Origin: Escherichia phage St-1
Sequence record: GQ149088
Direction: 5' to 3' (one strand)
DNA: 6,094 nucleotides
The stretch's first letter is position 1. Every line of letters starts with the position of its first letter. The notes beneath the pieces are model-generated. The model saw only the letters and a program-made list of their open reading frames with translations, made no database searches and had not been told where the DNA came from. Shown here piece by piece: positions 1-6,093 of this stretch. The translations under genes and the position numbers were made by a program.

Positions 1-64
1 TGTTGACATTCCCTGAGCCCTTATGAGACTCTTGCTTCAACGAAATGAAGTAGGAGTCTTTTTT

Positions 65-349
65 ATGAAGCCAGCTCACCGCCTTTATCATTCTGTGCTT
101 GGTTCTTGGTTGTTTAAGTGCCCTGTTTATATCCGTTATGAGTACCTTCATCATGGTCGTCTTATCAAGGTTCGCGCCGTTCGTGACCTTTCCCCGCGTC
201 AGCAGTTGATTGCCAATCCTAAAAATTGTTTGACGTCGTTATTGCCGAGATTGACGTTACTCACCTTTCTGTCACTTGGTATGATTTTGAGGCTGAAGAG
301 TATGCCGAGTGTGATTCCGGCACTATGGAACTTCTTCTTTCTCAGGTGA
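65..349 (+). CDS. Hypothetical basic protein, spacer ORF 1; only the N-terminal part (about 65-226) looks coding
   Basis: ATG at 65 preceded by AGGAG (52-56) with 8-nt spacing. From 65 to about 226 roughly 54% of codons end in T (manual count; CGT/CTT/GTT-rich like the known genes). The ORF track starts this frame at 23, but codons 23-64 lack that bias. After about 227 the bias in this frame falls to about 22% although the frame stays open to TGA 347-349. Product begins MKPAHRLYHSVLGSWLFKCPVYIRYEYLHHGRLIKVRAVRDL. No homolog recalled. Confidence 0.35.
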   Translation: MKPAHRLYHSVLGSWLFKCPVYIRYEYLHHGRLIKVRAVRDLSPRQQLIANPKNCLTSLLPRLTLLTFLSLGMILRLKSMPSVIPALWNFFFLR

Positions 350-432
350 ATTCTGGTGAGGTTATTCGTTCTTCTGAAGATCTGTTTGTTGATGTTGATG
401 ATATGGATTGGCTTTATGAGATTGCGGAGTAA
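226..432 (+). CDS. Hypothetical highly acidic protein, spacer ORF 2; start uncertain (TTG 226, internal ATG 325, or reached by frameshift from ORF 1)
   Basis: Frame 1 is open from 226 to TAA 430-432 with about 59% T-ending codons (manual count). Product is Asp/Glu-rich, ending SSEDLFVDVDDMDWLYEIAE. No convincing Shine-Dalgarno before TTG 226 or ATG 325. An in-frame TAA at 220-222 lies immediately upstream. Confidence 0.35.
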   Translation: MFDVVIAEIDVTHLSVTWYDFEAEEYAECDSGTMELLLSQVNSGEVIRSSEDLFVDVDDMDWLYEIAE

Positions 433-435
433 ATT

Positions 436-525
436 ATGGAGACTGTTATCGGAAAATTTATTGCTCTGGCTGTTGTTGCTCTTATGCTGTATGGAATTTC
501 CTGTTTGATTCGGAGGTTCCCGTGA
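436..525 (+). CDS. Hypothetical 29-aa hydrophobic peptide with a single predicted transmembrane helix, spacer ORF 3
   Basis: ATG 436 lies 3 nt after the ORF 2 stop and is preceded by GGAG (426-429, 6-nt spacing). Product METVIGKFIALAVVALMLYGISCLIRRFP has a hydrophobic core and a basic C-terminus. About 48% T-ending codons. Stop TGA 523-525. Confidence 0.35.
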   Translation: METVIGKFIALAVVALMLYGISCLIRRFP

Positions 526-698
526 AATATTTTAGTTTGGTTGATGAACATTATGCTTATTGCCCTGAGACAAGGATTCTGCATATCACTCGTAGTCGTG
601 TTTCTGACCCTCGTTATGAGCGTCGCTTTCTTACTGATGAGGAGCATTTTGCGCTTTTGGATTGGTTAAAAAATCGCCCGACTTATATTAATTCTTGA
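522..698 (+). CDS. Hypothetical 58-aa protein, spacer ORF 4
   Basis: GTG 522 overlaps the ORF 3 stop as GTGA, the same arrangement as the A/C junction, and is preceded by GGAGG (512-516, 5-nt spacing). About 62% T-ending codons (manual count). Product MKYFSLVDEHYAYCPETRILHITRSRVSDPRYERRFLTDEEHFALLDWLKNRPTYINS. Stop TGA 696-698 falls inside the -35 box of the gene A promoter. Not in the supplied ORF track (below its length cutoff). Confidence 0.4.
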   Translation: MKYFSLVDEHYAYCPETRILHITRSRVSDPRYERRFLTDEEHFALLDWLKNRPTYINS

Positions 699-3065: not shown

Positions 3066-4361
3066 ATGTCTAATGTACAAACTTCCGCTGAACGTGAAAT
3101 TGTTGACCTTTCTCATCTTGCCTTTGACTGTGGCATGATTGGTCGTTTGAAAACTGTTTCATGGACTCCTGTTATTGCTGGCGATTCCTTTGAGCTTGAT
3201 GCTGTTGGCGCTTTGCGTCTTTCTCCTCTGCGTCGTGGTTTAGCTATTGACTCTAAGGTTGATTTTTTCACTTTCTATATTCCGCATCGCCATGTTTATG
3301 GTGACCAGTGGATTCAATTTATGCGTGATGGTGTTGATGCCGCACCACTCCCTTCCGTTACTACTACTCAGTATCCGGATGACGCTGGTTATGTTGGTAC
3401 TATTGTTCCTAAGAGCAACCGTATTCCTAAGTTTTTGCATCAGTCTTATCTGAATATTTATAATAACTATTTCCGTGCGCCGTGGATGCCTGAGCGTACT
3501 GAAGCTAATCCTTCAAATTTAGACCGTGATGATTCTCGCTATGGATTCCGTTGCTGCCATCTTAAAACTATTTGGTCTGCTCCTCTTCCTCCGGAAACTA
3601 AGCTCGCTGAGCAAATGGGCATTGAAAGCAATTCCATTGATATTATGGGTTTGCAGGCCGCTTATGCGCAGCTTCATACTGAGCAGGAGCGTACTTATTT
3701 CATGCAGCGTTATCGTGATGTTATCTCCAGCTTTGGCGGTTCAACCTCCTATGATGCCGATAACCGACCGTTGCTTGTTATGCACACCGATTTCTGGGCT
3801 TCCGGTTACGACGTTGACGGTACCGACCAATCTTCCCTCGGACAGTTTTCGGGTCGAGTCCAACAGACGTTTAAACACTCAGTGCCTCGATTCTTCGTGC
3901 CGGAGCATGGTGTCATGATGACTTTGATGCTGGTTCGCTTCCCGCCTATCAGTCCTTTGGAGCATCATTATCTTGTTGGTCGTAATAATTTGACTTATAC
4001 CGACCTTGCGGGTGACCCGGCTTTGATTGGTAATTTGCCGCCACGTGAGATTTCTTATCAGGATCTTTTCCGTGATGGTCGTCCGGGCATTAAGATTAAG
4101 GTTGCCGAGTCTATCTGGTATCGTACTCATCCGGATTATGTTAACTACAAGTATCAGTTACTTGAAGGTTTTCCGTTCCTTGATGATGCGCCCGGTACGA
4201 CTAGTGGTGATGACCTTCAGAAGGCTATTCTCATTGACCATAATGACTATAATGCCTGTTTCCAGTCTCAGCAGTTGCTTCAGTGGAATAATCAGGCTCG
4301 TTATAATGTCAATGTTTATCGTCATATTCCTACTGTTCGTGATTCTATTATGACCTCTTGA
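3066..4361 (+). CDS. F: Major capsid protein F
   Basis: 431 aa, alignable along its whole length to phiX174 F by recall (MSNVQTSAER, ALRLSPLRRGLAIDS, YGFRCCHLK, SIDIMGLQAAYA, QFSGRVQQT.KHSVPRFFVPEHG, TRDSIMTS). AAGGA lies 7 nt upstream. Confidence 0.97.
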   Translation: MSNVQTSAEREIVDLSHLAFDCGMIGRLKTVSWTPVIAGDSFELDAVGALRLSPLRRGLAIDSKVDFFTFYIPHRHVYGDQWIQFMRDGVDAAPLPSVTTTQYPDDAGYVGTIVPKSNRIPKFLHQSYLNIYNNYFRAPWMPERTEANPSNLDRDDSRYGFRCCHLKTIWSAPLPPETKLAEQMGIESNSIDIMGLQAAYAQLHTEQERTYFMQRYRDVISSFGGSTSYDADNRPLLVMHTDFWASGYDVDGTDQSSLGQFSGRVQQTFKHSVPRFFVPEHGVMMTLMLVRFPPISPLEHHYLVGRNNLTYTDLAGDPALIGNLPPREISYQDLFRDGRPGIKIKVAESIWYRTHPDYVNYKYQLLEGFPFLDDAPGTTSGDDLQKAILIDHNDYNACFQSQQLLQWNNQARYNVNVYRHIPTVRDSIMTS

Positions 4362-4394: not shown

Positions 4395-4958
4395 ATGTAT
4401 CAAAATTTTGTTACTAAGCACGATACCGCCATTCAGACATCCCGTTTTTCTGTTACTGGTAGTATCACTCCTGTTGCGCCTACTGGTAATATCCCTGTTA
4501 TCAATGCTGGTAATATTACTGCTGAGCATGCTGTTGTTAATCTTTATGCTAATTTGACCGCTGGCACTTCTTCTGATGGTTCTTTTATTGTTGCTATGAA
4601 GGTTGACACCTCTCCTTCTGACCCTAACTGCGTTATCTCTGCTGGTGTTAACCTTAGCTTTGCTGGTACCTCATACCCGATTGTTGGTATTGTTCGTTTT
4701 GAGTCTGCTTTTGACCAGCCCACTTCTATTGCTGGTAGTCAGATTGAGCATTACCCAATTGAAATGTCTGTAGGTTCTGGTGGTGTTTGTTCTGCTCGCG
4801 ATTGCGCTACTGTTGATATTCATCCTCGCACTTTTGGCAATAATGTTTTTGTTGGTGTGATTTGTTCTAGTGCTAAATGGACCTCCGGTCGTGTGCTTGG
4901 TACCATCGCTACGACTCAGGTTATTCGTGAGTATCAGGTCCTTCAGCCGCTTAAATAA
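4395..4958 (+). CDS. G: Major spike protein G
   Basis: 187 aa with phiX174 G-like motifs (RFESA/RFESS, DC.T.D..PRT.GNNV.VG, VI.E...LQPLK C-terminus). AAGGA lies 6 nt upstream. Confidence 0.95.
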
Positions 4959-5094: not shown

Positions 5095-6093
5095 ATGCTT
5101 GGAAGTATCATTGGAGGTATTGGCTCATCGCTGCTCGGAGGACTTGCTTCCGGCGGTATCTCCAGTCTCCTTAATAAAATGTTTAGTAAAATGCCAGAAC
5201 ACGCCGCCTCTTCTGCTGGCCTTACTAATGGTCAAGGAACTATTGGTATGGATACTGACGCTGGCATTCAGTCTGCTATTCAGGGCTCTAATGTTCCTCC
5301 TGCTGGTCAATTGCCTGCCTCTAATACCTCTGGTGTTATGGCTGATGCTGGTAATATGATTCGTAATGCTGGCAGAGCTTTGCTTGACGGTACGATTCAG
5401 GCCGGTTCTGACAAGGTTAAAGAGGCTCTTATTGATAAGTTGGTTGGAGGTAATGATGCTAAAGACCGAGGAAAGGCAACCCGTGATTACTTGGCAGCGG
5501 CTTTCCCTGAGCTCAACCCATGGGAACGTGCTGGAGCTGATGCTTCCACTGCCGGGTTAGAGTCTTCCGCTCAGAATCAACAAAAAGAGATGCTTAAAAT
5601 GCAACTGGATAACCAGAAGGATATTGCCAAGATGCAGATGAATAACAATTTGCAGATTGCTGGCATTCAGTCCGCTACATCTCGCCAGAATACGAAGGAT
5701 TCTGTTTATGCCCAGAATGAGATGCTTCAGTATAATCAACGTGAGTCGCAGGCACGCGTTGCGTCCATCCTCGCCAACACTGACCTTACGACTAAGCAGG
5801 CCACCCATGAAATTATGAGGATGGCTCTTACCCGCGCTCAGGAGACTGGTCAGCATTTGACTAACTCTCAGATTATGGCTTTGGAGAAAAAGGTTTATGC
5901 AGAAATTGGCAAAATTCATCAAGATACTCAAAATTCTCGCTATGGTAGCTCTCAAGTTACTGCCGCAGCGAAAGACGTTACGAATATGATTACTGACGCC
6001 TCTTCAGGCTTTGCTGATTGGGCCTCTCAGCAGTGGAATTCATTCTTTAAGGATGGTAAGTCTGATGGTATTCCTCTCAATACCAGAAAATAA
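5095..6093 (+). CDS. H: Minor spike / DNA pilot protein H
   Basis: 332 aa with a Gly-rich N-terminus (GGIGSSLLGG) and long stretches matching phiX174 H by recall (AGI.SAIQGSNVP, TRDYLAAAFPELN.WERAGADAS, LDNQK.IA.MQ, IAGIQSATSRQNTKD.VYAQNEML, NSRYGSS). AGGAG lies 8 nt upstream. Stop TAA 6091-6093. Confidence 0.95.
   Translation: MLGSIIGGIGSSLLGGLASGGISSLLNKMFSKMPEHAASSAGLTNGQGTIGMDTDAGIQSAIQGSNVPPAGQLPASNTSGVMADAGNMIRNAGRALLDGTIQAGSDKVKEALIDKLVGGNDAKDRGKATRDYLAAAFPELNPWERAGADASTAGLESSAQNQQKEMLKMQLDNQKDIAKMQMNNNLQIAGIQSATSRQNTKDSVYAQNEMLQYNQRESQARVASILANTDLTTKQATHEIMRMALTRAQETGQHLTNSQIMALEKKVYAEIGKIHQDTQNSRYGSSQVTAAAKDVTNMITDASSGFADWASQQWNSFFKDGKSDGIPLNTRK

Follow-up and report, generated by a model that had tools for sequence, protein, structure and literature searches.

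The window analysed here, the whole 6,094-nt stretch of DNA from Escherichia phage St-1, comprises the entire genome of an alpha3-like microvirus (Bullavirinae, Alphatrevirus), and its open reading frame (ORF) map recovers the full phiX174-type gene set in canonical order. The following genes were placed on the ORF map.

758-2242, gene A, with B and K nested or overlapping, and then C
2472-2954, gene D, with E inside D
3066-4361, gene F
4395-4958, gene G
5095-6093, gene H

Genes A, A*, B, K, C, D, E, F, G and H, as well as two downstream small ORFs, are all intact. The first 760 bases are 81-93% identical to those of alpha3-like microviruses. Genome-wide, the best match in the phage collection is Lilleven (95.0%), with phiK at 94.0% and alpha3 at 92.4%; no near-identical record of St-1 was found in this collection, and the exact St-1 F and G proteins had no match in the assembly collection. 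ST-1 has been reported to be most similar to phiK and alpha3 (PMC3324380). The ST-1 bases published there in Table 3, T807, T1387, G3869 and A5540, match the sequence studied at four of four sites (chance about 0.005). Three of these sites also fit at the codon level: codon 210 of A is Thr, codon 149 of H is Asp, and 807 T>C changes Val to Ala. The amino-acid label given in the same paper at 3869 (V210F) disagrees with the codon in the sequence studied.

Between the end of gene H and the start of gene A lies a stretch of 758 nt that is annotated as empty in most records, and it is here that the coding signal changes frame. In alpha3-like microviruses this stretch holds a cassette of three genes, with ORFs of 122, 29 and 58 aa. 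Putative genes of the H-A region have already been noted, and the whole extra region is absent from phiX174 (PMC3324380); a literature search on Alphatrevirus intergenic ORFs found nothing relevant. In St-1 the stretch is laid out as follows.

52-56, plus strand, Shine-Dalgarno sequence AGGAG, 8 nt before ATG 65 and in the 3' arm of a hairpin at 25-60
65-228, plus strand, N-terminal part of the 122-aa gene, frame 2, codons 1-54 and the TG of the Cys55 codon
221-225, plus strand, A5 run within AAA AAT (Lys53-Asn54, invariant), 3 nt upstream of the deletion
228-229, plus strand, single-base deletion site in the alignment, where relatives read TG[C/T] TTT and St-1 reads TG-TTT
227-349, plus strand, out-of-frame tail in frame 2, CLTSLLPRLTLLTFLSLGMILRLKSMPSVIPALWNFFFLR, with its stop at 347-349, hydrophobic and with no coding signal
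229-432, plus strand, C-terminal part of the 122-aa gene, codons 56-122 and TAA 430-432, displaced to frame 1
437-526, plus strand, 29-aa hydrophobic ORF, second gene of the cassette, annotated in Lilleven and called in metagenome contigs
522-698, plus strand, 58-aa ORF, third gene of the cassette, conserved, its GTG start overlapping the stop of the 29-aa ORF as GTGA

The Shine-Dalgarno region of the first gene, AGGAGTCTT, is conserved in the alignment in all relatives. The hairpin at 25-60 is terminator-like (15 pairs), is followed by a T-run and lies directly after gene H, and its sequence is likewise conserved in relatives. Since its 3' arm contains the AGGAG of the 122-aa ORF, folding could link termination after H to masking of the ribosome-binding site. 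The second gene encodes the peptide METVIGKFIALAVVALMLYGISCLIRRFP, which occurs exactly on two Logan contigs; 16 intact variants of this ORF and 17 of the 58-aa ORF were found among relatives. Both small ORFs are intact in all of the relatives checked and are unannotated in the alpha3, phiK, WA, ID and NC records. Neither has a Pfam match or an informative PHROG match.

A preliminary description of this DNA had placed a switch of the coding signal from frame 2 to frame 1 at about 223-229, on the basis of a bias towards T-ending codons. A recount of this bias, together with a codon-usage score, bears out both the switch and its location. In frame 2, 29 of 54 codons (54%) end in T at 65-226, compared with 9 of 41 (22%) at 227-349 (Fisher p = 0.003), and in frame 1 the proportion changes from 15/52 (29%) at 67-222 to 40/67 (60%) at 229-429 (Fisher p = 0.0009). 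A log-odds model of codon usage trained on the St-1 genes A, F, G and H scored frame 2 at +25.8 bits over 65-226 and at -28.0 bits over 227-346; the corresponding values for frame 1 were -38.7 bits over 67-219 and +36.6 bits over 226-429. The best single switch, in which frame 1 is read from 226 or 223, reached 62 bits, compared with -2.2 bits for no switch. The elements described around the junction are all present: a frame-1 TAA at 220-222, a TTG at 226 without a Shine-Dalgarno sequence, an A5 run at 221-225 and no further ATG until 325. The contrast between a basic N-terminal and an acidic C-terminal part also holds, the former having a pI of 10.4 (ten Lys + Arg, two Asp + Glu) and the latter a pI of 4.05 (one Lys + Arg, 19 Asp + Glu). 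The earlier layout needs correction in one detail, which is that frame 2 stays open past the junction as far as the stop at 347-349 and gives a 94-aa product from ATG 65. The out-of-frame tail of this product has a GRAVY of 1.11.

Three readings of the switch had been offered, with no choice made among them: a -1 ribosomal frameshift, the splitting of a single ancestral gene by a 1-nt indel, and two overlapping genes with an atypical start. For comparison of the junction across related genomes, 15 GenBank records were aligned and contigs from IMG/VR, ENA and Logan were then added, giving 22 distinct relatives that represent, among others, 13 independent GenBank phages. All 22 read AAAAATTG[C/T]TTTGAC at the junction, where St-1 reads AAAAATTG-TTTGAC; the relatives carry a single ORF, and the two-frame layout of St-1 occurs in none of them. 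With the extra base present, the 122-aa ORF is intact from the equivalent of ATG 65 to that of TAA 432, except in the old alpha3 records considered below, and translation from the equivalent of ATG 65 yields an intact 122 aa in 13 of 13 independent GenBank phages and 94 aa in St-1. What St-1 lacks is the third base of codon 55. This codon specifies an invariant Cys inside the invariant block A50-D64, ANPKNCFDVVIAEID, and the junction segment is the most conserved part of the 122-aa protein. Of the 23 genomes, St-1 alone has a lesion at 228/229. A degenerate pattern scan found the deleted-type junction in no viral, metagenome or genome contig, and the intact-type junction in 12 viral and four metagenome contigs. 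In addition, the exact 108-, 94-, 68- and 35-aa products of St-1 are absent from a collection of 15 billion proteins.

The St-1 ORF contains no compensating second indel: only one gap appears in the alignment between 65 and 432, and the N-terminal and C-terminal parts both align base for base with the relatives. Depending on the ancestral codon, the lost base was the C in TGC TTT or a T from the T4 run in TGT TTT. The second state is found in a metagenome contig (L035), which reads TTGTTTTGAC, so the loss in St-1 may be that of one T from T4, a typical slippage deletion. Of the three readings, the second, a 1-nt indel in a single ancestral gene coding for about 122 aa, is thus upheld, as the relatives are unsplit at 228/229 and exactly one base is missing from St-1. 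We put at roughly 0.93 the probability that such an indel, whether real or artefactual, accounts for the frame switch, and not programmed recoding.

When the base is restored, the St-1 ORF encodes a 122-aa protein that is 96-97% identical to the family proteins P0009 and P0010 (E = 6e-75). A search with the repaired protein returned 19 clusters (90% identity; E from 6e-75 to 7e-43), nearly all of 120-122 aa and none of them split, and all but one matched over 99-100% of the query. The exception is a 211-aa protein on a 706-nt contig, with 69% coverage. The clusters of this family sit on contigs of microvirus size, about 6 kb. Against the uninterrupted ORF of 120-122 codons that defines the family, St-1 is a disrupted copy. 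The 122-aa ORF is already annotated in Lilleven and in MG945254, and gene callers find it on four independent metagenome contigs with the 58-aa ORF downstream. The ORF of 29 or 30 aa between these two is called in three of the four contigs (L032-L034), which, like Lilleven, share with St-1 the order H, 122-aa ORF, 29/30-aa ORF, 58-aa ORF and A; no gene is called at this position on L035. The hypothetical 122-aa protein of Lilleven (QBZ71502.1; BFVD A0A4D6DYX2) shares with St-1 its position, Shine-Dalgarno sequence, ATG and downstream 29-aa and 58-aa ORFs. A longer version of the protein, of 154 aa (P0025 and P0026), is encoded on Logan/ENA contigs of about 6.2-6.3 kb; its extension of 32 aa is acidic and N-terminal, and begins MKP… like the canonical start.

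Substitution patterns among the relatives indicate that both halves of the ORF are under purifying selection. Variable sites in the N-terminal part number 14/55, 3/55 and 46/54 at codon positions 1, 2 and 3, and the mean pN/pS is 0.10 in the N-terminal part and 0.41 in the C-terminal part. The AlphaFold model of the 122-aa protein is confident, with a dip at residues 41-60 (pLDDT 79), and the predicted fold has no match among solved structures. Because the junction peptide is invariant and selection acts on both halves, the locus is one gene and not two. Two genes would mean that frame 2 (65-349) encodes a basic protein and that frame 1 encodes a separate acidic one, begun at TTG 226 or at another atypical start. 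Both frames are indeed open across the overlap, and the dip in the model at 41-60 would fit a boundary between sub-domains. However, all relatives carry one continuous polypeptide whose junction is its most conserved segment, and not independent, well-initiated genes in both frames. Furthermore, frame 2 after 227 scores -28 bits with 22% T-ending codons, there is no Shine-Dalgarno sequence before TTG 226, the next ATG is as far away as 325, and the exact 68-aa and 35-aa products are missing from the protein collection. The suggestion of two overlapping genes was rejected on the continuous invariant junction peptide, the negative frame-2 score past 227 and the want of a good frame-1 start, and it is scarcely credible.

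The suggestion of a programmed -1 frameshift also fails, with the motif, the stimulator and the conservation all against it. The St-1 junction does resemble known -1 sites such as those of dnaX, IS911/IS3 and the tail-assembly chaperone G/GT in that the signal passes to the -1 frame beside an A-run and in that the shift region is bounded just upstream by a stop in the -1 frame. Unlike these sites, however, it has no heptamer or efficient tetramer, no stimulatory structure and no internal Shine-Dalgarno sequence, and the two-frame layout, which is conserved across relatives at true -1 sites, is not conserved here. The 0-frame CCU AAA AAU gives U_AAA_AAU, which is not of the form X_XXZ_ZZN as its first triplet, UAA, is not homogeneous. 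Tetramers that are efficient in E. coli (A_AAG, U_UUY, C_CCY and A_AAA) are absent, and A_AAU is non-shifty in E. coli. The predicted fold of 229-330 had z = -1.02 (26 of 200 shuffles were as good) and that of 229-280 had z = -0.16, so that no stimulatory RNA structure was detected there, and no GGAGG-like or Shine-Dalgarno-like element occurs in 205-220. Among the 22 intact relatives, 20 have the A5 run in frame and two have AAGAA instead; as the run is already in frame in intact genes, it was not acquired with the frameshift. Its proximity to the deletion is a coincidence, and it is not a functional slippery site. Transcriptional slippage requires a long run of A or T, typically of eight to nine or more, and a transcriptional slippage site was rejected as the run at 221-225 is only A5.

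A form of translational correction was also considered, in which a -1 slip on the A-run, programmed or of the 'saviour' type, would yield a full-length 122-aa protein with Cys55 replaced by Leu. In this scheme, tRNA-Asn would move from AAU 224-226 to AAA 223-225, or tRNA-Lys would slip on AAA, and frame 1 would be restored. Only a -1 shift within 223-228 avoids the TAA at 220-222 and keeps F56 onwards, and the A5 run lies there; neither the sequence nor the codon bias of the C-terminal part has been lost. The tRNA-Lys(UUU) of E. coli is prone to shifting (PMC4066793), and translational correction of indels is a recognised category (PMC5009743). On the other hand, none of the 22 relatives has the two-frame layout and the A-run in them encodes an invariant Lys-Asn in frame, the heptamer is lacking, the downstream structure is no stronger than in shuffled sequences, there is no upstream Shine-Dalgarno-like element, transcriptional slippage would need a longer run than A5, and the product would replace the invariant Cys55. 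Correction of this kind is thus very improbable. Much the same applies to one version of it, a real deletion with a little full-length Cys55Leu protein made by unprogrammed -1 slippage of tRNA-Asn or tRNA-Lys on U_AAA_AAU and with the C-terminal domain under selection, to which we would give only a slight chance. If true, 'saviour' slippage would explain both the undecayed frame-1 part and the synonymous nature of the lineage-specific changes past the junction.

These changes bear on the age of the indel. Compared with its nearest relatives, the C-terminal part of St-1 shows a pN of 0.006-0.025 against a pS of 0.28-0.44, and its amino acids match those of P0010 throughout and differ very little from those of alpha3 and NC35. 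Four changes in the ORF are unique to St-1, namely P10S, the deletion, and T>C at 237 and at 246, the last two being synonymous in the ancestral frame. As the C-terminal part is nearly free of non-synonymous change and the T>C pair is synonymous, the lesion is either very young or an artefact, with bypass as a much less likely third possibility. The undecayed C-terminal part by itself fits a very recent mutation, an artefact and continued expression equally well. Apart from the deletion, P10S, a C>T change at 92, is the one lineage-specific change that alters the protein sequence of the broken gene; Pro10 is invariant in the 22 relatives and in an alignment of 18 family proteins, and its loss may be a small sign of relaxed constraint.

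Whether the indel belongs to the phage or to the record is less certain than its presence in the sequence. An error, whether of sequencing or of editing, would mean that the phage has an intact 122-aa gene and that a base in TTG(C/T)TTT was dropped in base-calling or assembly. The lesion is confined to one of the 23 genomes, no public contig or protein has it, and the C-terminal part shows no decay at all, which speaks for an error; a frameshift in a region treated as intergenic would also go unnoticed, and if the ancestor had TGTTTT, the state seen in L035, the loss falls in a T4 homopolymer. There is moreover a precedent in the same ORF. The original alpha3 sequences (X60322.1, M25640.1 and RefSeq NC_001330) lack one C of a CCCC run at the equivalent of about 190-196, which is complete in the re-sequenced alpha3 (DQ085810.2) and in all other relatives. 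In these old records the 122-aa ORF appears frameshifted, with a 47-aa product, probably through an early sequencing error that continues to be propagated. As in St-1, a single base is lost in a short homopolymer, the same ORF looks split, and the region is annotated as non-coding. The place is different, however (the CCCC run at about 193, and 228/229 in St-1), and the alpha3 frame was restored by re-sequencing, whereas St-1 is known from one sequence.

Against an error in St-1 stands the way in which it was sequenced. For wild-type ST-1, genomic DNA was read by Sanger chemistry (BigDye). The complete sequences of four evolved isolates were also determined, and the only changes reported in them were four substitutions, all outside the H-A region (PMC3324380); no indel difference was reported between the wild type and its descendants. 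A run of T3 or T4 is also an easy template for Sanger chemistry, no other gene in the St-1 genome is broken, and P10S at an invariant residue hints at a real relaxation of constraint. A record error is accordingly the less likely origin, although one to be taken seriously. The repeated Sanger sequencing of ST-1 favours a real deletion, and we lean towards the deletion being real in the phage, whose sequence is known from one record. We infer, in addition, a recent origin for such a lesion and a dispensable gene.

On the reading that one base has been lost from a single ancestral gene, St-1 would carry a frameshifted copy of a conserved accessory gene, the first of the H-A cassette. Ribosomes starting at ATG 65 would make 54 native residues, or 55 if the Cys of the fortuitous TGT at 227-229 is counted, and would then add about 39 out-of-frame hydrophobic residues before the stop at 347-349. 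The 67 C-terminal codons, lying in frame 1 without a start signal, would be essentially untranslated apart from background slippage. The deletion would represent a recent loss-of-function allele, tolerated since the gene would be dispensable in laboratory culture. The region is absent from phiX174, and so the 122-aa gene does not belong to the essential microvirus set; its loss in a long-passaged laboratory phage would be unsurprising. A real deletion would make St-1 a naturally occurring knockout of this gene, would show that growth on E. coli K-12 in culture does not require it, and would provide a ready-made control for work on the natural role of this orphan protein.

Nothing out of the ordinary is needed to explain the frame switch: a conserved, poorly annotated accessory gene has lost a single base, or its record contains an error. 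St-1 adds no case of programmed recoding. Its value lies in annotation. The 'intergenic' H-A region encodes three conserved genes, apparently under selection, that are unannotated in most records, and St-1 and NC_001330 look non-coding there only because of single-base frameshifts.

The cassette is followed by a near-consensus sigma-70 promoter at 695-724 (TTGACA, 18 nt, TATATT; 11/12). A GC-rich hairpin (about 727-751) and a T-run come after it, directly before the gene A ATG at 758. From its sequence, the element at 695-757 is presumably the promoter of gene A with a leader hairpin.
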